Shown here: positions 18,566 to 62,894 of the stretch, in pieces
Layout: the number at the start of each line of letters is the position of its first letter
How positions within the stretch are numbered: the first letter of the stretch is position 1
Source of the DNA: a virus
Reading direction: 5' to 3' (one strand)
Virus record (IMG/VR): IMGVR_UViG_3300005747_000012
Location: 32,001 to 96,000 of that record
DNA: 64,000 bases
Notes under the pieces: generated by a model
Told to the model about the DNA's origin: nothing
Databases searched by the model: none
What the model saw: the letters and a program-made list of their open reading frames with translations, nothing else
Translations under genes and position numbers: made by a program

Positions 18566-19348
18566 ATGCAATTTTTTGGAATAGAAGAAGTTAAAGATTT
18601 GACAAAAGCTTCCCAAACAACTATTGAGTGGGCTTCTGGCTCTAACCTTAGAATTGGAGGTCAGGCTTATAGTGTGACTTCTGTGCTCACATTAGATACT
18701 GCCACAGATATTGACACAGGTGCAATAGCAAGTGATACTATATACTATATATATGCTGTTGTTGTAGCTGGAACAGTTAGTCTTAAATACTCACTATCAA
18801 ATTCTGTTCCAGCAGGATATAGTGCGTATAGATTAATTGGAAATTTTGCAACAGATGAAATATCTGAAATTTATGAAACAAATATTATTGCTCAACCTGT
18901 TGCTTTTTTGGAGGATGTAAAAGCCGAAGGTTCTCAAGGTGGCACATATACTACAGGGTCTTTTCAAACTAGAACGCTCAATACTCTATCAGGGGATATT
19001 GCAGCAGTCGGTGTAACTCTATCTTCTAACCAATTTACTCTTCCTACAGGAAAGTATTTAATTGAAGCTTATGGCAGGGCTTTTAGAGTTGATAACTTTG
19101 TTCACAGAATCCTCAATGTAGATGACTCTGTTGGAGTTTTATTTGGTGATATAGGGTATTCGGCAATTACATCTAATAGTAACGATATATCGCATGTTAG
19201 AGGGGTCATAACTATAACTAAAGAGACAACTTTTGCTCTCCAAATGAACGGAAGAGCTACAAGGTCTACGGATGGATTTGGTGCTGCTGCTTCAGGATTA
19301 GGTGTAGATTATAAATTTGCTCAAGTAAAAATTACTAGGATGAAGTAA
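18566..19348 (+). CDS. Tail fibre protein
   Basis: 'IDTGAIASDTIYYIYAV...PAGYSAYRLIG' and 'GGTYTTGSFQTRTLNT...NQFTLPTGKYLIEA' are common phage fibre motifs. Confidence 0.65.
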   Translation: MQFFGIEEVKDLTKASQTTIEWASGSNLRIGGQAYSVTSVLTLDTATDIDTGAIASDTIYYIYAVVVAGTVSLKYSLSNSVPAGYSAYRLIGNFATDEISEIYETNIIAQPVAFLEDVKAEGSQGGTYTTGSFQTRTLNTLSGDIAAVGVTLSSNQFTLPTGKYLIEAYGRAFRVDNFVHRILNVDDSVGVLFGDIGYSAITSNSNDISHVRGVITITKETTFALQMNGRATRSTDGFGAAASGLGVDYKFAQVKITRMK

Positions 19349-19374
19349 TAACCAACTAAATAAGGAAGCTATAA

Positions 19375-19461
19375 ATGGCTAAAGAAATATCATTGGGAAC
19401 TATCCTAACAAATAACGCCATTATTGACGGAAAGGATATAAAATATGAGTGTACAAGGTAA
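19375..19461 (+). CDS. 28-aa micro-ORF, possibly a deleted-gene remnant
   Basis: AAGGAAG RBS then MAKEISLGTILTNNAIIDGKDIKYECTR*; fills the gap between two fibre genes. Confidence 0.35.
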   Translation: MAKEISLGTILTNNAIIDGKDIKYECTR

Positions 19462-20683
19462 AGGTAATTTATCCTACAAAAAACAAAATGTGCAAAAACA
19501 AAACGCACCGCATACAGGTGTAAAAAACATTACGTTTGCGCATTTATTCTCTAATGCTGGTGAGACAACAATACCTTTTGATGCACTTGTAACGCCTCCT
19601 GAATGGTCAACATCAGGACTTGTAAATCCTACTTCTCAATCGTTACTTTCTGCTCAATTGCAAGTATTTAAAAATAATGTAACTGTAACATCTTCAGCAA
19701 GAGGTTTGATTCAAAAATCAGAATATATAGTACATGGTAATAGAATTGAATTTAAAAATATTACCTCACTTGTAAATGAATATTTTGAGGTTGAAGTAGC
19801 TGACATACTTATTACTGGAAATCTTATTGTTGATATGCAGACAATCAGAGTTGAAGGCGAACTTCAAGATACTGAAACTGATTTTAACATGGGATATGAG
19901 TTTGATGTATTGAACGAAGAAATCATAGTATTCCGTGATGGTATTCAGATGTTTAGGTCTGATAATAATGATTCGTCAGGAACTACTGGTAACTACTATT
20001 ATGTAGATACTGATGGCGATGGCAGGTCAAGTTTGCTTAGATTTTTTGAGCCTTCTGTCGGTGTTGAGCCTGTTTTAATTGCTAGTACAGGCGGTGTTGT
20101 TGATAATGCTAATGTTAGTACGTTTCAACAAATTGAGCATTTAGCTGGACAGCTTGATGCAATTGTTCCAACAGTAGCAGCACTTGCTGGTGTGCCAGAA
20201 AGTAATTTTAGAAGTGGGCCGAATAATGTTGATTTAACTCAATTCGGTAATTTATTAATAAATCTTGACAATAAATATGACACAACTGAAAAACTAAGTG
20301 AATATACCAAAACAAAATATCAAACTAAAAGTACTAATTTTTCTGCTGATGGACTTATTTCAGCATTAACATTCAATAATTTAGAACCCGGTAAAACGTA
20401 TAGAATCTACGGAAGATTATATGTTGATGGTAATAATGTTTCTGCTAATCAAGGTGCTTTTATCAATATAGTTCATAATGGTGTTAACATACAAGGTGCC
20501 AGTATTGGAGGTGTATTTGGCACATCTCCAGATAGAAGACACAGTTTTGCTTTTAATGAAGTCTTTACAGCAACAGCAGCAACTCTTGAAGCAGTTGCAT
20601 TTAATGTTCAAAATGCAGGTAACACAATCAAGTGGACTTTAGAAGAACTACCAAACCATGAAGAGACAACAGATTTTACATAG
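19445..20683 (+). CDS. Tail fibre/structural protein
   Basis: 412 aa beta-rich; 'IIVFRDGIQ...GNYYYV' repeat-type motif and a distinct C-terminal domain. Confidence 0.55.
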   Translation: MSVQGKGNLSYKKQNVQKQNAPHTGVKNITFAHLFSNAGETTIPFDALVTPPEWSTSGLVNPTSQSLLSAQLQVFKNNVTVTSSARGLIQKSEYIVHGNRIEFKNITSLVNEYFEVEVADILITGNLIVDMQTIRVEGELQDTETDFNMGYEFDVLNEEIIVFRDGIQMFRSDNNDSSGTTGNYYYVDTDGDGRSSLLRFFEPSVGVEPVLIASTGGVVDNANVSTFQQIEHLAGQLDAIVPTVAALAGVPESNFRSGPNNVDLTQFGNLLINLDNKYDTTEKLSEYTKTKYQTKSTNFSADGLISALTFNNLEPGKTYRIYGRLYVDGNNVSANQGAFINIVHNGVNIQGASIGGVFGTSPDRRHSFAFNEVFTATAATLEAVAFNVQNAGNTIKWTLEELPNHEETTDFT

Positions 20684-20693
20684 GAATTAAAAT

Positions 20694-21206
20694 ATGCCAA
20701 AAACAACTTTACTTAGAAAACAAGTAACACCTACAGGGACGATACAGCCTCATGCTGGTGGAACTGCCCCTGACGGTTTTTTAGTGTGTGATGGTACTAT
20801 TGTGGACATTGCCGACTATCCTAAATTATATGCTGTAATTGGAACATCTTGGGGATATGGTAATAATGATGGTTTAACATTCCACTTACCTGATTTGAGG
20901 GGTAGGTTTTTAAGGGGTGTAGATGGTGCAGCAGGGCGTGACCCTGATTCTGGAGCTAGAACTCCTTCAAATACGGGCGGTAATTCTGGCGATGCTGTTG
21001 GAAGTGTGCAAGATGATAATTTTAAAGAACACACACACACAATAACCACTTATGACACAGCTTTTGGCGGTTCTGCAAATATTCAAGGTTACGGTGCCAG
21101 TGTTAGGGATGCTCCATCAACAAACGCAACTGGTGGTGCAGAAACCAGACCTAAAAACGTAGCAGTAAATATGTTTATAAAGATAAACAGAGAGCCTAGT
21201 AGTTAA
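20694..21206 (+). CDS. Phage tail collar domain protein
   Basis: 'PTGTIQPHAGGTAPDGFLVCDG...YPKLYAVIG...FHLPDLRGRFLRG' and 'ETRPKNVAVNMFIK'. Confidence 0.9.
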   Translation: MPKTTLLRKQVTPTGTIQPHAGGTAPDGFLVCDGTIVDIADYPKLYAVIGTSWGYGNNDGLTFHLPDLRGRFLRGVDGAAGRDPDSGARTPSNTGGNSGDAVGSVQDDNFKEHTHTITTYDTAFGGSANIQGYGASVRDAPSTNATGGAETRPKNVAVNMFIKINREPSS

Positions 21207-21208
21207 AA

Positions 21209-21853
21209 ATGATTAATAAAAATTATAAAAGCGAATATGGATTAATCAATGCTAAAATTGCAGATATTAATGCAGAAAATGCTCCGCTATGGTCTGTTGA
21301 GTATTTGCTTTTAGAAAATAATCCTGCACTTTTTTATTCTCTTGAAAATTACATAAGATTATGTAAAACTGACACAAAAGGCCTTTACAATCAATTTCCC
21401 ATAAGATATCACAATAAAGATGACTACACAAGCCCTGATCAGTTAATTGCATTTGTAGCATTTTTTAAAATGTCTAATTTAAACAGTGAAATCAAAGATA
21501 TCTGGAAATATCTAATCAACCACATTGGAACTTATGATAATTTAACTGCCAAAACTAACTGGTCAAGAATTATGCAACCAGCAGCTTTGGCTTTTGTTGG
21601 GGCGTGTGCCGGAAGTAAATGGGCCAAAATAGCTCTTTCCATATCTTGCGTATATTCTTGTGCTACCAAAAAAAATGAAACATCAGGAAAACTCAAGGCT
21701 TGGGTTATGTTTAAAACCCTTAACATGAAAATTACAGAATTTTTGTGTACTTATTTTATAAAAAAAACACCATTTAAAGATTGGAAGGGAATATTTTTTG
21801 AATATTTTCAAGAAAAAGAGCATCCAATAAGAAAAATATTGGGTAAAAAATAA
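21209..21853 (+). CDS. Hypothetical protein
   Basis: 214-aa ORF translationally coupled (TAATG) to the clpX-like gene. Confidence 0.6.
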   Translation: MINKNYKSEYGLINAKIADINAENAPLWSVEYLLLENNPALFYSLENYIRLCKTDTKGLYNQFPIRYHNKDDYTSPDQLIAFVAFFKMSNLNSEIKDIWKYLINHIGTYDNLTAKTNWSRIMQPAALAFVGACAGSKWAKIALSISCVYSCATKKNETSGKLKAWVMFKTLNMKITEFLCTYFIKKTPFKDWKGIFFEYFQEKEHPIRKILGKK

Positions 21854-22824
21854 TGAGTAAAGAAAAAAAATATATAATAAAAACTCCAGAACAAATAAAA
21901 AATGAGCTGGATGAATATGTTATAGGCCAAGAAAGTGCTAAAAAAAACCTAGCGGTTGCCGCCTATAATCACTTAAAAAGAATAAATGGTTGTGATATAA
22001 GGAAAAATAATCTTTTAATTATAGGTCCTACAGGATGTGGGAAGACATATTTAGTGTCAAATCTTTCCAAGATTCTAAATGTAGATTTTTTAACTGTTGA
22101 CGCTACACAATTCACGGCTTCTGGTTATGAAGGAAGAGATGTTCAGGAAATTGTAATTGAATTAATGAACATATGTGAAGATAGTGAAAAAAGAGCATCA
22201 AAATCTATTGTTTATATAGATGAGGTGGATAAGATAAAAAAGAAGCAATCTGGTGGAAATGCAGATGTAAATGGTGAGGGTGTGCAGCAATCTCTTTTAA
22301 AATTAATAGAGGGTAGCGAAATTCCTTATACATCTCCAAATTCAAGAAATGGAATGCGTGACAAAAAGCTAGATACTAAGAATATTATGTTTATATGCTC
22401 AGGAGCTTTTGTTGATTTAAAAGAGGCAACTACGGAAGGTCTGGTAAAATTTGGTATGATACCAGAGTTTTTAGGAAGATTTTCTTCCGTTGCTGAGATA
22501 CATCAACTAGAATTTGATGATTACAAAAAAATATTAACTGATTCAAAAGATTCTGTTTTAAATTCATTTAAAGAATGGTTTAAAAGTGAGAATGTTAGTT
22601 TGGTTATAAAAGAAAATGCTTTAGATTTAATTGCTAAAAGAGCTGTGGATAGAGGTTTGGGTGCTAGAGGATTGCAAAATATATTGGATGAAATCTTTTT
22701 AGACGCTCAATTTCAACTACCTAGCATGAAAATAAAACCTATTTGTTTTGTTTTAGATGCTGAAGTTATAGAAAAAAACAAACCAAAATGGGTTTATAAA
22801 AATGTTTTAAGTAAAAAACAATAG
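21853..22824 (+). CDS. clpX: ClpX-like AAA+ ATPase lacking zinc-binding domain and IGF loop
   Basis: 'LDEYVIGQESAKKNLAVAAYNH', Walker A GPTGCGKT, Walker B IVYIDEVDKI, 'DVNGEGVQQSLLKLIEG', 'GMIPEFLGR', 'GARGL'. Confidence 0.9.
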   Translation: MSKEKKYIIKTPEQIKNELDEYVIGQESAKKNLAVAAYNHLKRINGCDIRKNNLLIIGPTGCGKTYLVSNLSKILNVDFLTVDATQFTASGYEGRDVQEIVIELMNICEDSEKRASKSIVYIDEVDKIKKKQSGGNADVNGEGVQQSLLKLIEGSEIPYTSPNSRNGMRDKKLDTKNIMFICSGAFVDLKEATTEGLVKFGMIPEFLGRFSSVAEIHQLEFDDYKKILTDSKDSVLNSFKEWFKSENVSLVIKENALDLIAKRAVDRGLGARGLQNILDEIFLDAQFQLPSMKIKPICFVLDAEVIEKNKPKWVYKNVLSKKQ

Positions 22825-22906
22825 GCTTGTATGGTGGAATTGGTAGACACAGAGGGCTTCAACCCCTTGGGCTAAGGCCGTGCGGGTTCGAGTCCTGCTG
22901 CAAGCA
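22825..22906 (+). tRNA. tRNA with Leu-type body and UCA anticodon (predicted opal suppressor)
   Basis: Acceptor GCTTGTA/TGCAAGC; D arm GTGGAATTGGTAGACAC; anticodon stem GAGGG/CCCTT around loop CT-TCA-AC (anticodon 22859-22861); variable arm GGC-TAAG-GCC; T arm GCGGG-TTCGAGT-CCTGC; discriminator A; CCA not encoded. Confidence 0.9.
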
Positions 22907-23197
22907 TCATTTATTTTCAAAAATCTGATCCCAAGTCTGGTACTTGTAAGAGGGATTTTTTTTCCATTCTTCTTCTCTAAATAGCACAACTGTTTTATTG
23001 CTAAGTTCAATGCAGTTTCCATCTATAAGCCTGTACATAGTTATACATGGTATCTTTGCCGATACATTTTGCAGCAAATTTTTTGAAGCCTGTCGATCAT
23101 CAGAAAAAACTACAAATTTTTGTTTTTCTTTTAGAATTCCTTTTTCTAATATTGCGTTAATTAAACTATCCATTTTACACACCTTAAAATCATCCAA
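22907..23197 (-). CDS. Hypothetical protein
   Basis: 96 aa, last gene of the - strand block; its TGA stop abuts the tRNA discriminator. Confidence 0.6.
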   Translation of the reverse strand: MDDFKVCKMDSLINAILEKGILKEKQKFVVFSDDRQASKNLLQNVSAKIPCITMYRLIDGNCIELSNKTVVLFREEEWKKNPSYKYQTWDQIFENK

Positions 23198-23600
23198 TTA
23201 CATTTTTGACTACTTTAGCTAAAATAGCCCCGTCAACATTTTTTAATTCTTTTTTTATAGCACCAATTGTTTTGCCCATTTCTTTGCTAGGATTTTGTTT
23301 TAGATATTCTTCCACATATTTTTTAGTCTCTTCTTCAGACATCTGTTTCGGCAAAAGCTCTTTAATTAAACCATATTCTTTTTCTAAATCTTCGTATCTG
23401 TCGGTATTCTCAAACATTTTTAAAGTTTTAAATAATTTTTTTGCGTATTTTTCAACAACCTCTAGTTCACCAATTGGTTTTTTAGATTTTTCATTGTTTA
23501 AAAGTTCTGATTTTAATAAAACAAAAACATTAGAAGTAAATTTGTCTCCACTTTTTTTAGCATCAATTATTTTTTTATTTACTAAATCTAACATATACAA
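23190..23600 (-). CDS. GatB/YqeY domain protein
   Basis: 'AKKSGDK...LLKSELLNNEK', 'LLPKQMSEEE', 'MGKTIGAIKK...VDGAILAKVVK' match the YqeY pattern. Confidence 0.85.
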   Translation of the reverse strand: MYMLDLVNKKIIDAKKSGDKFTSNVFVLLKSELLNNEKSKKPIGELEVVEKYAKKLFKTLKMFENTDRYEDLEKEYGLIKELLPKQMSEEETKKYVEEYLKQNPSKEMGKTIGAIKKELKNVDGAILAKVVKNVIG

Positions 23601-23606
23601 ACCTTT

Positions 23607-23912
23607 TCACATAATTAATGGGCAAACTTGTTCGTAATATTCTTCGGTAGTTAAATCAAATTTAATATCTTTTTCTAACGTACCCATAGTTTCCCACCTA
23701 ATTTTTTTTTCAATTTTTCCATTTGGATATTTATAGTAATCAAAAGCAATTTCAAATTTTTCTCTATTATGAATAGGAATATATTTTTGTAAGATTTCAG
23801 AGAAATTGTAGCCCAGAATCTCTTTTAAAGGAATCTCTACAAACAAAGTTTTTACTTTAGTTACGTCAACTTTTTCACCTTCACATGTTGTTAAAAAAGT
23901 TTTGCTATTCAT
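23607..23912 (-). CDS. Hypothetical protein
   Basis: 101 aa, start overlaps upstream stop. Confidence 0.55.
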   Translation of the reverse strand: MNSKTFLTTCEGEKVDVTKVKTLFVEIPLKEILGYNFSEILQKYIPIHNREKFEIAFDYYKYPNGKIEKKIRWETMGTLEKDIKFDLTTEEYYEQVCPLIM

Positions 23913-24411
23913 TATAACTCCATCTAGGTTCTTTTTTATCTAAGTCCCAACGATCATTAATGTACAGCGAATATGCGACATGTACATCTTTAATATGTTT
24001 ATAATTAACGCCTAAACTATCGTGCGCTGCACAGTTAGGAAATTCTGTCCTAGCTCCAGCAGGGATGTTTTTAGCAAAAGCCATTGCAAGTTTAATGTTA
24101 TTTCGAGCATTTGCATGACCTTTGCCCCCACGCCTATAATGTTCGTTAAGAAATTCCAGTGTACTACGGCACATATGTAAGAAATTTGACCTGTTTTTTC
24201 TTACCCATACAGTACATGGATGATTAAAATGTCCCTTAATTCCAAAAGGATTGCCGTTTATACGCTTAGGAAGCTGCTCAGGCGTTGCACCGTGAAAGCC
24301 CATAGCAACAGCAATCATTTGCTGAAATTCACTAATAAACTTATTTAAACGCACATTGTCCATAAATTTAGCGTTGCCTTTGGGTGTTGGTGTTGGCACT
24401 GGATAATTCAT
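23905..24411 (-). CDS. Pyrimidine-dimer glycosylase-like (DenV/Pyr_excise-related) protein
   Basis: 'DNVRLNKFISEFQQM', 'HFNHPCTVWVRKNRSNF', 'EHYRRGGKGH' as in the widespread phage family. Confidence 0.7.
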   Translation of the reverse strand: MNYPVPTPTPKGNAKFMDNVRLNKFISEFQQMIAVAMGFHGATPEQLPKRINGNPFGIKGHFNHPCTVWVRKNRSNFLHMCRSTLEFLNEHYRRGGKGHANARNNIKLAMAFAKNIPAGARTEFPNCAAHDSLGVNYKHIKDVHVAYSLYINDRWDLDKKEPRWSYNE

Positions 24412-31047: not shown

Positions 31048-31282
31048 TGGTCGTTTATCAGGGATTCAAACCCTGTCTATAAGTCACCGGCCTATTCTGA
31101 CTACATGACCATGGTGCGGCTTCGGGTTTCTCACTACCCTCCAAGCTAGGCGAATTTAAAGAGTCTAAACCCACATCCTCTTTTGGTCTCTCCCTCAACA
31201 GCTTAGAGACTTTCCTAGTGTTCAAGTTGGCACACGCTCTAAAAGCCAAGTTGGTGTTTATATAGCGTCCCGTACATAACGC
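31048..31282 (-). ncRNA. GC-rich structured region of tandem tRNA-like units
   Basis: ACCA ends at 31252, 31184, 31112 and 31048; T-arm-like CAGGG-TTTGAAT-CCCTG; acceptor-like GTGGGTT/AAGCCGC; further hairpins GTCTCT/AGAGAC and TTGGC/GCCAA. Confidence 0.55.
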
Positions 31283-31549: not shown

Positions 31550-32590
31550 TTATTGATCCATCATTTTAACTTGATCTAAAATGCGCTCACCCAAGTAGGG
31601 GTCTTCTTTAATGGCTTGAGCCATTGCATTTTTACCATTATATGTCTCGCCTTCGTATGTATAAGTTCTATTATTAGGCCTATCAATTACGCCGGTATTT
31701 ACACCCAGCTCAAAAATTTCCTCATGCTGATTTATAAAACCTCTTTTGTAATCTAAAGTAACCTTGGCAGTTCGACCAGCTTGACCAACTGAATTCTGTT
31801 CCATTTTAACATAAATTTTATGTCCTGTCACGGCTTTGTTCCCTCTAGCATCCTTAATATTTCCTTCAAAAGAATTGCCAGCTAGGTCTTTTTTGTCATC
31901 AGCAGAACCAGCACGTTTTACAGATAGAAAAAACTCATGATTGTGTTCACAAGCTTTTGGAACTGCGGCCTTAGTGTCTGGCCCATACATAGCTCCAATA
32001 TTCATTCTAATTTGTGCTACAGTAATATATGTAATGTTATGTTTTTTAAAAAATGGAATTACCCTGTCTAAACCTCTGGTAATAGTCAAAGCTTTGTCGC
32101 CAATTAGGTGATCGCCTACCGACTTACCTTCGGCTTTAATACCACCAATAGCAGTAAGTGAGTCAATAACAACCATTTTTAGCGGCATACCATCTTGAAC
32201 CATTGCCTGAACATCTTCGGCTAGATAATCAAAAATATCCCTTGGGTCACTGGTGTCGTACATGACAATTCTTTCAGGGTCAATGTTTCCAAAGAAACCT
32301 TTTTGGAATTTACCTTTGTATTCTGTGGAAAAATACATTACAATACCTTCACCATCATCCTCATGCAATTGACCTGCAATAGCCTGTGATAACAAAGACT
32401 TACCAGCTTTTGGTTCTGAGTAAAGTAGAACGCCAGAGCCTTTGGGAATACCATGGGATTTATTTGCAAAAATCCAGTTAATATAAGGGCTTGGTGTATA
32501 TACACAATTTTCAATAGCAAATGCATCGTAATCATTTTCTACGGCAGCATCGTGTTTTCTTAGCTGTTTAAGCCATTTATTTTCAGCCAT
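31550..32590 (-). CDS. recA: RecA/UvsX-like recombinase
   Basis: 'GIPKG', Walker A 'SEPKAGKS', 'VVIDSL', 'AQIRMNIGAMYG', C-terminal 'YNGKNAM'. Confidence 0.88.
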   Translation of the reverse strand: MAENKWLKQLRKHDAAVENDYDAFAIENCVYTPSPYINWIFANKSHGIPKGSGVLLYSEPKAGKSLLSQAIAGQLHEDDGEGIVMYFSTEYKGKFQKGFFGNIDPERIVMYDTSDPRDIFDYLAEDVQAMVQDGMPLKMVVIDSLTAIGGIKAEGKSVGDHLIGDKALTITRGLDRVIPFFKKHNITYITVAQIRMNIGAMYGPDTKAAVPKACEHNHEFFLSVKRAGSADDKKDLAGNSFEGNIKDARGNKAVTGHKIYVKMEQNSVGQAGRTAKVTLDYKRGFINQHEEIFELGVNTGVIDRPNNRTYTYEGETYNGKNAMAQAIKEDPYLGERILDQVKMMDQ

Positions 32591-59887: not shown

Positions 59888-62440
59888 TTACACCTTTATA
59901 AATTTTATTTCATTTGTTGTTTCTTTATACATAGAAAGTCTTTTTTGCAAATGATTTTCTAAAAGACTTATGTTGCTTACTCTAAAATCATAAATTTTTG
60001 AATAAGGCTTGGGCCTGTGATAGCCCTTGTATTTACTGTTTTCAAGAATACGGACACTTCTACCAACAGCCCCCTGCTTAGTTCTGGTTTCAGAGCCACC
60101 GCCTACCCAATTTATAGTATTGTGTGTGCAGTACATGTTGGTTCCTGTTGCAATGCAAGAAGTTCCAATAAGAACTTTCACTTGTCCAAGATTAAAAGTT
60201 TCAACTGCCTCATCGACTTTCCGAGTTTCCAGACCAAATCTAGCAGCATCAGCTTTTGATGCAGAATGTACATATTCAAACGGAACATTTAGTCTGTCTA
60301 CTAACATTCTAATTTGCTCCAATTCCTCCACCAAAATTAAAGTGCTTTCTTGAGCTTGATTCCAAGCTGAATTTGCAATCTTGGCCGCTATATCGGCGAT
60401 GTTTGAATTGTATAAAAATTGTTTTCTTTTAGCTTTTAGTGGGTCTCTGTAATTTTTAACATCTTTACTTGTAGTTTCAAAAACAAAAAATTTTACAGGA
60501 CAAATATAACCACCGTCTACGGCTTCCTTTGTTGGTAGTTCATATACTTTTTTTCCAATAATTGATTCTAGCAACTTGTCTTTTCCGTCACCCCTAACCT
60601 GAGTACCTGATAAAAAAAATCGGTATGGAACACTGTTTAGCACACCATGAAATACTGTTTCAAGAGTTTCAGCCGCCAGTGTGTGGGATTCATCGCCAAT
60701 TACTACATCAGCATTAGCAAAGAAATCATAGGCTTCAGTACCCGGTTTAAGCATTGTTAGTGACTTTGACACGCACACTGTAAACAATTTACCTAATCTT
60801 TTTTTACCGCCACCATAAGCTCCGACATTAGATTTGCCAAAATGGTGCTCAAATTTCTCCAAAATTTCTAGAAATATAGACTTACTAGGTGTAACTATTA
60901 CGGTCTTAAGACCTAGCTCACGGGCTAGTGTCAAAATAATAGCTGTCTTACCTGAGTTATGGGTAACGGTAAAATCATCCATAACATATAAATTATCGTT
61001 GTCAACTTCAAAGCCAAAATATTCATTTTCTGGCAATTGCTTTACTTTAAAACCTGTTCTTAATACATTTTTTACTTGCTTTCTGGGTTTTGCTTTTTTT
61101 CTTTCTAATATAACTGGTATTCTATTAATATCACCAGAAATTGTAATTCTATAATATGTTCCTTCGATTCCATTTTGACTTTTCTTTTTTTCTTTTTTTT
61201 GGTAAGCTGCAAAACCAAGTGATCTTGCTATAAAAAGTATATCATCGGATAATTCTTTGTTTTTCTGAGAAATTTCATAATAATTATTTCCTAAGTATCC
61301 ATCGGAATCTATTACACCAGCCAATAATTTAAGTCTTGTTTCTTCTGAATTTATTTTAAAATCTTTTGGAATATGTTTGTTTTTTATTAAGTCGTAATGT
61401 TTTAGATTGTTTCTTAGTGCATTTAACCCTTTTCCTCTAAGTGGATTATACATGCAATAAGTTTTAGACAAATTGTTTTCTGATATAACTTCTTCTCTTA
61501 TCATTAAACCAAGTTGCCTTGCGTATTCCATCCATTTTTCTTTAATTTCGCAATCCATTGTAGTTAAAGCTGGACCATCTGAATTCCCATCGCCAAGCCA
61601 AATACCTAATATATAGGGGTCGATAGCGGTTAATTTGCTTTTAAAATCAATACCTGTTCTATATAGTTTATATCTATGTTTAAATGATTTTGTTTGTTTT
61701 AAATAATCTTTTACTGATATATTTACAATTGGATTTGTACCTTTAAAATCACTTCTTCTTTTTTTGTTTTTTATACGATATTGAGATTGATTATTAGTTC
61801 TTTGCAAGGATAATATATGCCCCATATTAACTATAAAAGACTCCCCTTTAACTGGAATAATTTTTGCCATTTTTTCTTTGCCTCTATGTAGTTTTAATAC
61901 TTTACGAGGTTTAGAATCTGGCCCCATTAACAAATCACCAACAACAATATCTTCCACTTTTTTTAAAGAACCATCATACATTAATATTTCTTGTCCCTTA
62001 ACGTGACATCCCGTGCAAAGCTCTACACAGCCATGTTTTGCCTGAATAAGACGTTCTACAGATTTTTTCTGGTATGGATATAGCTCAAATGGCAAAGTCT
62101 TTCTCCACGGCATTTTGCGTGGCTCTGGGTAGCTAATACGGTTGTGTATATCAAAACTATACCCAGACAAATATGGTAAAGAACCCGGATGAAAAGCCAA
62201 TTTTTGGTTAGAATCTAGTGTTAGCATACAAGTTTTTAATTTAGATTCTAGTTCTTTCTTTCTCAAATCATAAGTATGAGGCTTGTTTTGCTGTAACCAT
62301 CTGTTTTTTTTAAGTTTTTGCAAAGCAAATTGGGCTGACGTATCACTATAAGTCAGGCTTTTTTTCAAATCATCGACAACTTCCCTATTGGGAGTTTCGA
62401 GGTAACATTTGGTTGGATTTTCTATTGTAATCTTTATCAT
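59888..62440 (-). CDS. SF2 (UvsW-like) helicase containing an intein
   Basis: 'LYPYQ', Walker A split 'CTG|SGKT', 'DESH', 'SGT', 'QGAVGRSVR'; probable start MIKITIENP at 62440. Confidence 0.9.
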   Translation of the reverse strand: MIKITIENPTKCYLETPNREVVDDLKKSLTYSDTSAQFALQKLKKNRWLQQNKPHTYDLRKKELESKLKTCMLTLDSNQKLAFHPGSLPYLSGYSFDIHNRISYPEPRKMPWRKTLPFELYPYQKKSVERLIQAKHGCVELCTGCHVKGQEILMYDGSLKKVEDIVVGDLLMGPDSKPRKVLKLHRGKEKMAKIIPVKGESFIVNMGHILSLQRTNNQSQYRIKNKKRRSDFKGTNPIVNISVKDYLKQTKSFKHRYKLYRTGIDFKSKLTAIDPYILGIWLGDGNSDGPALTTMDCEIKEKWMEYARQLGLMIREEVISENNLSKTYCMYNPLRGKGLNALRNNLKHYDLIKNKHIPKDFKINSEETRLKLLAGVIDSDGYLGNNYYEISQKNKELSDDILFIARSLGFAAYQKKEKKKSQNGIEGTYYRITISGDINRIPVILERKKAKPRKQVKNVLRTGFKVKQLPENEYFGFEVDNDNLYVMDDFTVTHNSGKTAIILTLARELGLKTVIVTPSKSIFLEILEKFEHHFGKSNVGAYGGGKKRLGKLFTVCVSKSLTMLKPGTEAYDFFANADVVIGDESHTLAAETLETVFHGVLNSVPYRFFLSGTQVRGDGKDKLLESIIGKKVYELPTKEAVDGGYICPVKFFVFETTSKDVKNYRDPLKAKRKQFLYNSNIADIAAKIANSAWNQAQESTLILVEELEQIRMLVDRLNVPFEYVHSASKADAARFGLETRKVDEAVETFNLGQVKVLIGTSCIATGTNMYCTHNTINWVGGGSETRTKQGAVGRSVRILENSKYKGYHRPKPYSKIYDFRVSNISLLENHLQKRLSMYKETTNEIKFIKV
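60956..62008 (-). mobile_element. Intein (351 aa) with LAGLIDADG endonuclease
   Basis: Starts CHVKGQEILMYDG, ends 'FTVTHN' before Ser; 'LGIWLGDG' and 'LLAGVIDSDG' blocks. Confidence 0.95.
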
Positions 62441-62474
62441 ATAACTATATAATATCACAAAAAAAGGAGAGATT

Positions 62475-62894
62475 ATGTCTTTTAAATATAGCGCCAAATC
62501 TCTAGCAAAATTAAATACTTGCCACCCAGATTTGCAAAAAATACTTAAAAAAGCAATAAAACACTATGATATCACTATCTTAGAAGGTATTCGTACCAAA
62601 GAATGCCAAGAAGAGCTAGTTCGTACCGGTATGTCAAAAACTATGGACTCTAAACATTTAAAACAAGCTGATGGCTATTCTCATGCCGTTGACTGTGCTC
62701 TTTGGCCGGTTGATTGGAATGACCGTGAGAGATTTGTATTTCTACAAGGTTATCTCAAGGGTTTAGCTGACCAAATGAAAGAAGCTGGTGAAATTAGCCA
62801 CTCTCTTCGCCTTGGTGTAGATTGGGACGGTGATGGTAATATCAAGGAACATTCTTTCTTTGATGGGCCTCACATTGAACTTTCCCTAAAGTAA
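62475..62894 (+). CDS. Endolysin, M15-family L-Ala-D-Glu peptidase
   Basis: 'EGIRT..Q', 'SKH...HAVD', 'DGPHIEL'; AGGAG RBS. Confidence 0.9.
   Translation: MSFKYSAKSLAKLNTCHPDLQKILKKAIKHYDITILEGIRTKECQEELVRTGMSKTMDSKHLKQADGYSHAVDCALWPVDWNDRERFVFLQGYLKGLADQMKEAGEISHSLRLGVDWDGDGNIKEHSFFDGPHIELSLK

Follow-up and report, generated by a model that had tools for sequence, protein, structure and literature searches.

A phage tRNA with a leucine-type body and a UCA anticodon as a candidate reader of UGA in a phage that uses the standard genetic code

Introduction

What use does a phage that keeps the standard genetic code have for a tRNA with a leucine-type body and an anticodon complementary to the stop codon UGA? 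The question is raised by a single tRNA gene in a 64,000-nucleotide stretch of viral DNA (the window; positions 32,001 to 96,000 of IMG/VR record IMGVR_UViG_3300005747_000012). We know of no genetic code in which UGA is naturally decoded as leucine. Known phage suppressor tRNAs are tools of stop-codon recoding, with tryptophan as the residue inserted by the tested UGA readers, and such tRNAs have already been described in phages that keep the standard code. Here we describe the tRNA, its conservation and its genomic setting, and we weigh the explanations for its presence; it emerges as a rare candidate for ribosomal read-through of UGA.

The phage record comprises 129,267 bases with 33% GC and is rated by CheckV as linear and about 81% complete. 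A 128-kb relative, G001, is syntenic with it across the tail, structural, terminase and replication modules. All or part of the stretch occurs in 20 run rows from 20 studies, four of which were compared base by base (X2 and X16, DNA; X14 and X13, RNA); the labels of these four runs place the phage in natural waters.

Results

An intact class II tRNA with a UCA anticodon

The gene encodes a genuine, intact tRNA with a UCA anticodon (Table 1). ARAGORN calls it as the only tRNA in the window, with the anticodon tca at position 35, and Rfam RF00005 matches the same span from end to end (51.9 bits, gathering score 29; E 3e-08), bearing out the intact UCA cloverleaf of the initial annotation. The label "SeC" attached by ARAGORN derives from the anticodon alone. 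In the ARAGORN drawing, a 7-bp acceptor stem with one U.G pair is accompanied by a 3-bp D stem and a 5-bp T stem. The anticodon stem GAGGG/CCCTT, of 5 bp, closes a 7-nt loop of C32, U33, U34, C35, A36, A37 and C38, and the 13-nt variable arm folds into a 3-bp stem with one unpaired base on its 5′ side and two on its 3′ side. The discriminator A73 is the last base ahead of the 3′ trailer, which begins TCATTT, and CCA is not encoded. The MFE single-strand fold of the tRNA differs from the cloverleaf, a frequent occurrence; the case is carried by covariance models. Candidate shortened tRNA-like units at 31048–31282 are rejected, as Rfam shows nothing resembling a tRNA there at E values up to 10. 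The 129-kb record holds no other tRNA and G001 holds none at all; the UCA tRNA is therefore not part of a codon-usage set.

Table 1 Features of the tRNA locus in window coordinates
Feature	Position	Strand	Evidence
Tail-fibre and tail-collar genes	18566..21206	+	PHROG tail fibre/collar families, Pfam Collar 3e-20
214-aa ORF	21209..21853	+	No Pfam/PHROG match; Atlas: viral hypothetical clusters only
clpX-like AAA+ ATPase gene, 323 aa	21853..22824	+	Pfam AAA_2 3.4e-23, ClpB_D2-small; homologues named ClpX
Class II tRNA, 82 nt, tRNA-Leu-type body, anticodon UCA	22825..22906	+	ARAGORN, Rfam RF00005, Leu-only covariance model R1, alignment with tRNA-Leu(UAA) genes
Anticodon 5′-TCA-3′ (positions 34–36)	22859..22861	+	ARAGORN and alignment A4; kept in 3 IMG/VR contigs
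Sole polymorphic tRNA position seen	22900	+	Alignment A2: G in window and L001, A in L002 and L003
Convergent orphan ORF, 96 aa from TTG, 88 aa from ATG at 23173	22907..23197	-	No family match, no G001 homologue
YqeY-like gene, 134 aa from ATG	23190..23594	-	Pfam YqeY 3e-13; conserved in G001

The tRNA body is of the leucine type

Judged by alignments, covariance scores and fold, the body of the UCA tRNA is of the tRNA-Leu type. In alignment A4 its D arm and anticodon stem-loop match five tRNA-Leu(UAA) genes column for column, with TAA there in place of TCA here, and this homology fixes the anticodon register; the fold drawing concurs with the reading of GAGGG/CCCTT around CU-UCA-AC that had been proposed at the outset. 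C35 (22860) is the sole anticodon difference from tRNA-Leu(UAA), and C38 is found also in a genuine phage Leu(UAA). The D arm and D loop, GGAAUUGGUAGAC, are Leu-type, with A14, A15 and G18G19 and a U at the last variable position (the numbering being our own reading), and the column of A73 holds only A among the genuine Leu tRNAs of alignments A4 and A5.

A Leu-only covariance model (R1), trained on 34 Leu tRNAs that were selected without regard to likeness to the UCA tRNA, gives it 76.4 bits, within the 66–86 bits of other Leu tRNAs and the 72.6–85.6 bits of six Leu tRNAs outside the training set. Other long-arm isotypes score 51.8 and 39.3 (Tyr), 42.2 and 37.9 (Ser) and 34.4 (Sec), and the top non-Leu match is a Lys tRNA at 60.5 bits. 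Among the 60 phage-database matches listed, 39 are annotated as tRNA-Leu and none as another isotype, the top three all being Leu(UAA). Similarly, 47 of the 49 bacterial tRNAs that share the D-arm motif and T loop are Leu, and the nearest of the 49 is a Leu(UAA), identical at 68 of 82 positions. The initial annotation had recognised Leu hallmarks in A73, A15-U48, the D loop and the long variable arm, and had noted the 7/5 fold. By cloverleaf, A73, D arm and covariance score the tRNA falls within bacterial class II tRNA-Leu; its anticodon, UCA, is neither NAG nor YAA, the anticodons for Leu codons.

Two other identities suggested by a UCA anticodon do not fit this architecture. The 7/5 fold with a 3-bp D stem rules out tRNA-Sec, which in bacteria has an 8/5 fold and an extended D stem; identity to a bacterial tRNA-SeC of 97 nt (L161) is 54/82, with an alignment score of 0.5. 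The long variable arm and A73 rule out the architecture of tRNA-Trp(UCA), a class I body with a short variable loop and G73, and the best tRNA-Trp in the comparison set is identical at 51 of 82 positions. Fold drawing and identity comparisons thus agree with the grounds on which both had first been set aside.

The tRNA-Leu(UAA) genes of Pseudomonas phage LUZ100, Bacillus phage Thrax4 and a Prevotella MAG have the same architecture, anticodon register, D-arm motif, T loop and A73. The UCA tRNA differs from such ordinary tRNA-Leu(UAA) in carrying C instead of A at base 35, by which it matches UGA and cannot read UUA or UUG, and in a shorter variable arm, with a total length of 82 nt against 85–93 nt.

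The UCA anticodon is conserved across strains

The UCA anticodon is kept in three IMG/VR contigs from three metagenomes that are 98.3–98.9% identical around the tRNA. The one polymorphic position pairs with U6, and the G-to-A change turns U6.G67 into U6-A67, so that pairing is kept. The DNA contigs of X2 and X16 span the whole stretch, and their listed differences include none in the tRNA. These two contigs are up to 2.5% divergent; X16 has 42 differences in 1701 bases, and none of the 37 of these 42 that are listed lies in the tRNA; at least 11 differences fall within the 117 bases immediately upstream. About two changes would be expected in the tRNA of X16, against zero among the differences listed, and, strain divergence being low, conservation over 82 bases is statistically weak. 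UCA is not an error, being kept in three contigs of IMG/VR and in two DNA contigs of separate studies. Base 22860, at which the initial annotation had allowed for one, is C35 in the three IMG/VR contigs and unchanged in X2 and X16 among the differences listed.

An RNA-library contig from X14 spans the tRNA and lacks one base at 22861 (A36/A37), the only indel among the differences listed; this is a single contig at depth 3.9, and RNA contigs could derive from library DNA. A modified A37 leaves reverse-transcription signatures in tRNA sequencing. The X13 RNA contigs end at 22844 and restart at 22985, a gap in cover to which we attach no weight.

Across IMG/VR, the Leu-type D arm combined with CTTCAA matches five stretches, three of which are the same phage; the other two are a chance match within coding sequence (L234) and an interrupted tRNA-like 5′ half (L235). 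No sibling with a UAA anticodon on the same anticodon stem was found in IMG/VR, and no more distant relative with a UCA tRNA among the IMG/VR pattern matches, the ClpX-aligned viral loci or G001. The ClpX-alignment search of viral contigs gave 80 loci, 54 of which (L007–L060) were scanned for tRNAs; the six closest (L007–L012, 58–64% identical) have no tRNA within 6 kb, and L013 has a tRNA-Met 4 kb upstream of ClpX. A scan of metagenome contigs with generic Walker motifs returned only ClpX genes of about 40% identity, and blastn of the 82 nt against E. coli genomes, a database too large for so short a query, gave no match.

The tRNA directly follows a clpX-like gene

The clpX-like gene ends in TAG at 22822–22824 and the tRNA begins at the adjoining base, as noted initially. 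At its other end the tRNA adjoins the TGA stop of the convergent ORF (TCA on the plus strand, 22907–22909). ClpX homologues include P0002 (76% identical) and P0003 (73%), which represent intermediate relatives. In G001 the clpX-like gene lies at a different place and the 214-aa ORF has no tblastn match; relative to G001, the stretch of 214-aa ORF, clpX and tRNA is placed here only in the lineage of this phage. Further downstream, a 101-aa ORF (23607–23912, minus strand) lies in frame ahead of the YqeY-like gene, with a TGA and four codons between them. We rejected a read-through fusion of the two and put the arrangement down to chance, since the TGA is followed by an RBS-like AAAGG and a start ATG, and 27 of 27 homologues found stand alone (134–145 aa, in a search limited to lengths of 133–424).

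In a simple scan, promoter-like sites around the tRNA number 12, against 15.9 expected from shuffles, and none stands out ahead of the tRNA. Terminator-like sites number one, against 1.8 expected, with none at the junction of tRNA and convergent ORF; these counts are uninformative. The folding of the 3′ flank has z = -0.69. Tail-fibre and tail-collar genes, which lie upstream on that strand, identify the transcription unit as a late one, and the co-oriented position of the tRNA directly behind the tail-fibre and clpX-like genes, with no standout promoter of its own, makes late co-transcription with them plausible. The initial annotation had called the tRNA probably late.

The phage uses the standard genetic code

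The phage uses the standard genetic code. In 114 HSPs obtained with G001 genes across the 129,267-base record, no real in-frame TGA was found in conserved genes, which extends to the whole record the initial observation that no gene with an in-frame TGA is visible in the window. Gaps of at least 120 nt between crude code-11 gene calls amount to only 4,078 of the 129,267 bases. Treating TGA as sense moves ORF cover from 0.871 (code 11) to 0.899, and treating TAG as sense moves it to 0.893; none of the ten longest ORFs grows longer when TGA is sense. TGA is the stop of 37 of 180 crude genes here and of 30 of 157 in G001, which lacks tRNAs, and in 95 reciprocal-best pairs it ends 19 genes in the phage and 22 in G001. 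Late genes ending in TGA are few (3/43) and likewise scarce in G001 (7/47); with terminator use much like that of G001, we dropped TGA depletion as a sign of adaptation. The tails that read-through would add after TGA have a median of 8 codons. A search of six-frame read-through ORFs against G001 and G002 was also discarded, its 399 "spanning" matches being frame-shadow artefacts of DNA conservation. Set beside recoded phages, this one has the stop-matching anticodon and shows neither in-frame TGA (in a record rated 81% complete) nor rarity of TGA.

Within the record, rated 81% complete, there is no match to families that would point to code-change machinery of the phage's own: RF-1, class I Leu/Ile/Val-type synthetases (PF00133) and CCA-adding enzymes or poly(A) polymerases are all unmatched. 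Tyrosine integrases (PF00589) are likewise unmatched in the record, for which reason the idea of an attP site or prophage was dropped.

Discussion

On balance, the reading we favour, and to which we give about even weight, is that of a working tRNA derived from tRNA-Leu(UAA), charged with leucine and competing with release factor 2 at UGA late in infection. A phage- or host-type tRNA-Leu(UAA) would have become a UCA tRNA through an A-to-C change at base 35. The transcript would be made together with the late genes; host RNase P would cut its 5′ end, host enzymes would process the 3′ end, and CCA would be added, because none is encoded. Bacterial LeuRS, in the bacteria studied, recognises A73 and the core of the tRNA rather than its anticodon, and charging of the UCA tRNA with leucine by the host enzyme is expected for that reason. 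The Leu-tRNA would then compete with release factor 2 at UGA, so that leucine is inserted with some read-through late in infection. Such read-through would be tolerable, because there is no in-frame UGA, few late genes stop at TGA and the added tails are short. The gene, its Leu-type body and UCA anticodon, the conservation among strains and the standard code are observed; processing, charging and read-through are inferred, as is any benefit. The likeliest gain would be that UGA termination is loosened generally during infection, or that the tRNA represents an early step ("suppressor first") towards recoding. By wobble rules, a Leu-charged tRNA with U34 would probably also read UGG, and leucine at Trp codons would be a cost. 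Further counter-points to the favoured reading are that no target and no adaptation to the tRNA were found and that TrpRS might charge it instead.

A more specific proposal, which we regard as rather unlikely, is that the phage keeps a Leu-inserting UGA suppressor without any recoded gene so as to act directly on termination in the cell it infects. The late tRNA might, for example, make ribosomes run past the UGA stops of host genes. The host gene for release factor 2 carries an in-frame UGA; if this too were read, the supply of the factor would drop and read-through would become self-reinforcing.

The most serious competitor, appreciably less probable than the favoured reading, is a relic: an ancestral Leu(UAA) tRNA that has undergone A35C and is tolerated, weakly expressed or poorly decoding, without a selected function. 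The ancestor would have been useful because TTA is the commonest Leu codon of the phage (34.6%; 44.9% in G001), and one base separates the two tRNAs. Neither a target nor a codon-usage adaptation has appeared, the UCA tRNA is confined to one species-level lineage, and strain divergence is too low for proof of constraint. Against decay, however, UCA is present in every strain seen (the window, the three IMG/VR contigs and the X2, X16 and X14 contigs), the sole change in the tRNA strengthens its stem, and the X16 flank has diverged beside 82 tRNA bases with no listed difference. The missing UAA sibling in IMG/VR also argues against a relic, and useless DNA is usually lost from phage genomes. Targets might instead lie beyond the record, in an unassembled part of the genome or in a satellite or co-infecting element with in-frame TGA; this we take to be the least probable account, and very improbable. 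The incompleteness of a linear record would allow it, as would a contig of 132,919 bases whose YqeY is 99% identical, and recoding in known phages can be limited to part of the genome. Yet the tail, structural, terminase and replication modules are present in synteny with G001, those recoded in known cases lack in-frame TGA here, and a few kb at most are known to be missing.

The remaining alternatives concern what the tRNA does. TrpRS recognises C35 and A36, the anticodon being a major identity element for it, and a working opal suppressor might therefore insert Trp or a mixture of Leu and Trp, leaving UGG codons unharmed, that is, sparing the phage the cost of Leu at UGG. A tRNA-Gln opal suppressor has reportedly been shown to switch to Trp. 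Seki et al. used mass spectrometry on an E. coli cell-free system and saw Trp inserted by 13 of 13 phage tRNA-UCA analysed, though these may have had Trp-type bodies. We nevertheless consider Trp insertion improbable here, given the Leu-type body and long variable arm. Bacterial TrpRS uses G73, not the A73 of this tRNA, and LeuRS should charge a Leu body efficiently whatever its anticodon. A role outside decoding, in which the fold would act as an RNase P/RNase Z processing and 3′-end element between two convergent transcription units, or as a decoy for a host nuclease directed at tRNAs, the anticodon being incidental, is likewise a minor prospect. Consistent with it, the tRNA fills the entire space between the clpX-like stop and that of the convergent ORF with no spacer, and the simple scan shows no terminator-like site at the junction, where folding of the 3′ flank gives z = -0.69. 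The decoding features, however, are intact (U33, A37, the 5-bp anticodon stem and the 7-nt loop), and the G001 record manages without a tRNA anywhere. The record also shows no match to tRNA-repair genes (RNA ligase family PF09414), and a tRNA with UCA would be unable to decode in place of a cleaved Leu(UAA).

Comparison with known systems sets the favoured Leu-type suppressor apart. Laboratory Leu-inserting nonsense suppressors made from tRNA-Leu, such as the amber suppressor supP of E. coli, rely on the same principle, the blindness of LeuRS to the anticodon; those are selected or engineered and mostly read UAG, whereas the present tRNA is natural, phage-borne and matches UGA. Stop-codon-recoded phages with a UCA tRNA likewise encode it themselves, are AT-rich and infect standard-code hosts; they come from the gut, in contrast to the natural waters of this phage. 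In recoded phages TGA falls opposite Trp or, under code 25, opposite Gly, whereas the body here is Leu-type, and TGA stands at 4 of 146 stops in their standard-code relative, against the 37 of 180 crude genes counted here with no recoded gene. Natural tRNAs of bacteria and phages whose body and anticodon disagree are known in the allo-tRNAs and the selC* tRNA-Cys(UCA) (Mukai et al., PMC5389517), and an opal-reading UCA species among them suppresses UGA in E. coli. Their folds are unusual (8/4 or 9/3) and their identities are Ser, Ala or Cys, in contrast to the 7/5 fold and Leu body of this tRNA. Full-text literature searches returned no Leu-bodied phage UCA tRNA from the text they covered; some may be listed in Table S1 of Seki et al. 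or among the tRNAs tabulated by Borges et al.

If the tRNA is charged with leucine and decodes, it would provide a natural example of leucine insertion at UGA and would indicate that a suppressor can persist without any recoded gene, which bears on how a change of genetic code starts ("suppressor first") and on phage tampering with host termination. An attack on termination, if true, would be a new use for a phage tRNA; if the gene is a relic, it is a small curiosity only. A tRNA that is charged and decodes would also offer a ready-made natural Leu-type opal suppressor for testing, and because the phage is widespread in waters, as its 20 run rows indicate, material for such work exists.

Identification of a UCA tRNA with a Leu-type body

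ARAGORN calls a single tRNA in the window, and on the whole 129,267-base record (33.4% GC) the same gene is the sole tRNA found. At window 31048-31282, a stretch overlapping a 63-aa ORF, nothing resembling a tRNA is picked up by ARAGORN or by Rfam at E up to 10. The intact cloverleaf with UCA in its loop described in the initial annotation is reproduced by the ARAGORN fold and by an end-to-end match to the Rfam tRNA model (51.9 bits; gathering score 29), and the UCA tRNA is confirmed. The fold has a 7-bp acceptor stem that includes one U·G pair, a 3-bp D stem with D loop AAUUGGUAG, an anticodon stem GAGGG/CCCUU closing the loop C-U-UCA-A-C, a 13-nt variable arm with a 3-bp stem, and a 5-bp T stem. 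The discriminator is A, and CCA is absent from the gene. The “SeC” label given by ARAGORN derives from the anticodon alone and was set aside. As had been noted earlier, the gene starts at the very next base after the clpX-like stop, and its 3′ side adjoins the stop of a convergent ORF, leaving zero spacer at both borders (see table).

Positions of the tRNA and associated features (window numbering unless stated)
Feature	Position	Strand	Remark
clpX-like segment moved relative to G001	21209-23197		loci L095, L097
clpX-like AAA+ gene	21853-22824	+	stop TAG, 22822-22824
X14 record 13	22655-23020		365 bases; spans tRNA
X16 differences upstream of tRNA	22695-22811		11 differences
UCA tRNA	22825-22906	+	
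C35	22860	+	
X14 missing base	22861		in A36-A37 pair
L002 and L003 difference	22900		G to A; partner of U6
Convergent ORF stop	22907-22909	-	TGA
YqeY-like gene	23190-23594	-	two genes from tRNA
Last listed run difference	23394		
Strain insertion/deletion	23903-23972		69 bases; about 840 in L001 and L005
ORFs flanking clpX-like gene in G001 (homologues), one side	59888-62497		
The same, other side	64186-65253		record 96186-97253, just past window end
Pro(tgg)-called tRNA	L195:4291-4378		88 nt
Leu-like tRNA 5′ half	L235:2855-2970		contig with 18 tRNAs
Inverted record ends	record 1-30; about 129174-129203		second copy about 65-95 bases from end

The assignment of the body to tRNA-Leu made in the initial annotation is well supported by sequence comparison, since five lines of evidence concur. 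Among the 60 phage-database matches listed, 39 fall on annotated tRNA-Leu, 21 on nothing annotated and none on other isotypes, and the top three are Leu(UAA) by ARAGORN. The pattern of the D arm and T loop matched 50 bacterial loci, at which 47 of 49 motif-bearing tRNAs are Leu (41 GAG, 5 UAA and 1 CAA), the closest being a Leu(UAA) of a Prevotella MAG identical at 68 of 82 positions. Leu likewise makes up 38 of the 40 nearest of 187 distinct gathered tRNAs, a set biased towards Leu in which the best Tyr and Ser reach 53/82 and 50/82; a true SeC is identical at 54/82, with an alignment score of 0.5. On a covariance model built from 34 Leu tRNAs chosen without regard to likeness to the query, the tRNA scores 76.4 bits and six true Leu tRNAs outside the training set score 72.6–85.6, compared with 51.8 and 39.3 for long-arm Tyr, 42.2 and 37.9 for Ser, 34.4 for Sec and 60.5 for a Lys tRNA, the highest non-Leu score. 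The tRNA aligns in register with five Leu(UAA) genes (alignment A4), from which its anticodon differs by a single base (TCA vs TAA), and its C38 also occurs in Thrax4 Leu(UAA). The simplest origin would be a tRNA-Leu(UAA) in which A35 changed to C. Such an ancestor would make sense, as TTA is the most frequent Leu codon in the phage (34.6%).

Conservation of the anticodon and RNA-library contigs

An exact 31-mer over the anticodon loop recurs in three IMG/VR contigs, each from a different metagenome, which are 98.3–98.9% identical to the record near the tRNA. The tRNA is unchanged in L001, and in L002 and L003 it carries one difference that turns the U·G wobble into U-A (alignment A2). A search of public runs found all or part of the stretch in 20 rows, drawn from 20 studies and labelled sediment, estuary, freshwater, aquatic, marine or seawater, and contigs of four of these were compared with a 1,701-base stretch. 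DNA contigs of 3,040 bases (X2) and 6,476 bases (X16) cover it in full with 16 and 42 differences, and none of those listed (12 of 16 and 37 of 42) lies within the tRNA, whereas X16 differs repeatedly just upstream. Listed differences of the four runs are ordered by position, and the unlisted X2 and X16 differences probably lie past the last of them. The C at 22860, which the initial annotation had held to need confirmation in relatives, is thus kept in the three IMG/VR contigs and free of listed differences in both DNA contigs; therefore C35 is fixed in a widespread phage population and is no assembly error.

Two metatranscriptome libraries also have contigs on the stretch. One of these contigs, X14 record 13, lacks one base within the A36-A37 pair, the only insertion or deletion reported among the four compared runs. 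Because modified A37 (ms2i6A and others) leaves reverse-transcription signatures in tRNA sequencing (preprint), the position of this indel is a weak hint of a mature, modified tRNA, coming from one contig at depth 3.9 in a type of library where DNA contamination is possible.

Gene neighbourhood and relatives

Tail-fibre genes, tail-collar genes and the clpX-like gene lie upstream on the same strand, and no promoter-like site stands out ahead of the tRNA (12 in 3.6 kb vs 15.9 expected), so co-transcription with late genes is plausible. Of the earlier statement that the tRNA is probably made late, the co-oriented arrangement stands as observed, and late transcription itself is what we infer from it.

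The syntenic relative G001 (128,193 bases) shares 95 reciprocal-best proteins with the phage and long DNA blocks about 70–80% identical. Its record has no tRNA, nor do the comparison records G002, G004 and G005; G003 has six. A search with the anticodon stem, the anticodon left free, found IMG/VR occurrences only in the three contigs of the phage, and as far as seen the tRNA appears restricted to one species-level lineage. In G001 the YqeY-like gene lies about 0.7 kb after the tail-collar gene and the clpX-like gene about 40 kb from that site; in the phage, the tail-collar and YqeY-like genes are separated by an orphan ORF of 214 aa, the clpX-like gene, the tRNA and a second orphan ORF of 96 aa. 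The clpX-like gene has changed position, and its old site holds four small orphan ORFs. The presence of the YqeY-like (GatB-tail-like) gene does not depend on the tRNA, as G001, which lacks a tRNA, and many related contigs have it too. Just past a 101-aa ORF, an insertion or deletion separates strains that are otherwise 98–99% identical.

UGA usage in the phage

UGA is not a sense codon in this phage. With code 11, ORFs of at least 100 aa take up 0.871 of the record; the fraction is 0.899 if TGA is read as sense and 0.893 if TAG is, and reading TGA leaves the ten longest unaltered. A crude greedy call yields 180 genes over 94.3% of the record, with gaps of at least 120 nt adding up to 4,078 bases; 113 of these genes stop at TAA, 37 at TGA and 30 at TAG. 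In tblastn with G001 gene products, 3 of 114 HSPs have a stop on the window-phage side, two of them located at the edge of an alignment, ahead of a start codon, and one belonging to a shadow ORF. Not one of the 114 shows a genuine gene with TGA in frame, which extends to the whole record the earlier remark that no such gene was visible.

Nor has TGA been purged. It ends 30 of 157 genes in G001, and among the reciprocal-best pairs 19 genes in the phage vs 22 in G001. TGA stops are scarce in the late modules of both (3/43 in the phage, 7/47 in G001) and number 20/60 and 16/57 in the middle block. Read-through of the 37 TGA stops would add a median of 8 codons. Only once is the next gene in frame, where the 101-aa ORF is followed by TGA, four codons and the YqeY ATG; this candidate read-through unit is best read as chance, because the homologues found, 27 in all, each consist of YqeY alone (134–145 aa).

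The record contains no RF-1 family gene, class I Leu/Ile/Val-type synthetase, integrase, CCA-adding family gene or RNA ligase. CheckV puts it at 81% complete and the same phage is also represented by a contig of 132,919 bases, so a few kb are unseen; that the tRNA serves UGA targets outside the record is nonetheless very improbable. At the two contig ends, an exact reverse-complement repeat carries inverted gene starts, both copies being the ORF start MNKYDKELK, and may mark an assembly break in a repeat.

Possible function of the tRNA

In the bacteria studied, LeuRS reads A73 and core features and ignores the anticodon, so the host LeuRS would be expected to charge this tRNA with Leu. In the best-supported reading, to which we give an even chance, the charged tRNA would then contend with RF2 for UGA codons late in infection. 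Such a tRNA could be tolerated, since in-frame UGA is absent from the phage, late genes seldom stop at TGA and read-through tails are short. Against Leu suppression stand the lack of any target found or codon-usage adaptation, a conservation test low-powered at 1–2.5% divergence, and a likely cost, namely Leu inserted at UGG should U34 pair with G by wobble. To our knowledge, UGA-to-Leu is absent from natural codes. A tolerated relic of the proposed Leu(UAA) gene is a distinctly weaker candidate, and a processing element or decoy is improbable. TrpRS might also charge the tRNA via C35/A36, which is conceivable because mass spectrometry showed Trp to be inserted by 13 of 13 phage tRNA-UCA analysed (Seki et al.); with a Leu-type body, a Trp-inserting or mixed suppressor seems unlikely here.

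Both suppressor tRNAs and stop-codon recoding are amply documented in phages, and the gain of a TGA suppressor by a standard-code phage has been interpreted as a stage that precedes a change of code. In that known TGA-suppressor lineage TGA is reported to end only 4/146 genes, in contrast to 37/180 crude genes here, and in known recoded phages TGA falls at Trp positions, or at Gly positions under code 25, whereas the body here is Leu-type. A minor fraction of standard-code bacteria is reported to carry suppressor tRNAs too. Full-text searches of the literature turned up no phage tRNA-UCA with a Leu body.

Conflict between body and anticodon is known in natural tRNAs such as allo-tRNAs and a UCA tRNA-Cys, which, unlike the tRNA described here, have unusual 8/4 or 9/3 folds (PMC5389517). 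Two further Leu-bodied tRNAs are possibly mismatches of this kind or register errors: one in a Candidatus Sumerlaeota MAG (L195), which shares the Leu-type D arm and the long variable arm but has its anticodon called one base later than usual, and another called Asp(gtc) among loci L184-L233. Inside a phage tRNA array on an IMG/VR contig (L235), a Leu-like 5′ half (acceptor and D arm) that ARAGORN does not call passes into AT-rich sequence containing an ORF that starts with ATG, and may be an interrupted or intron-bearing tRNA.
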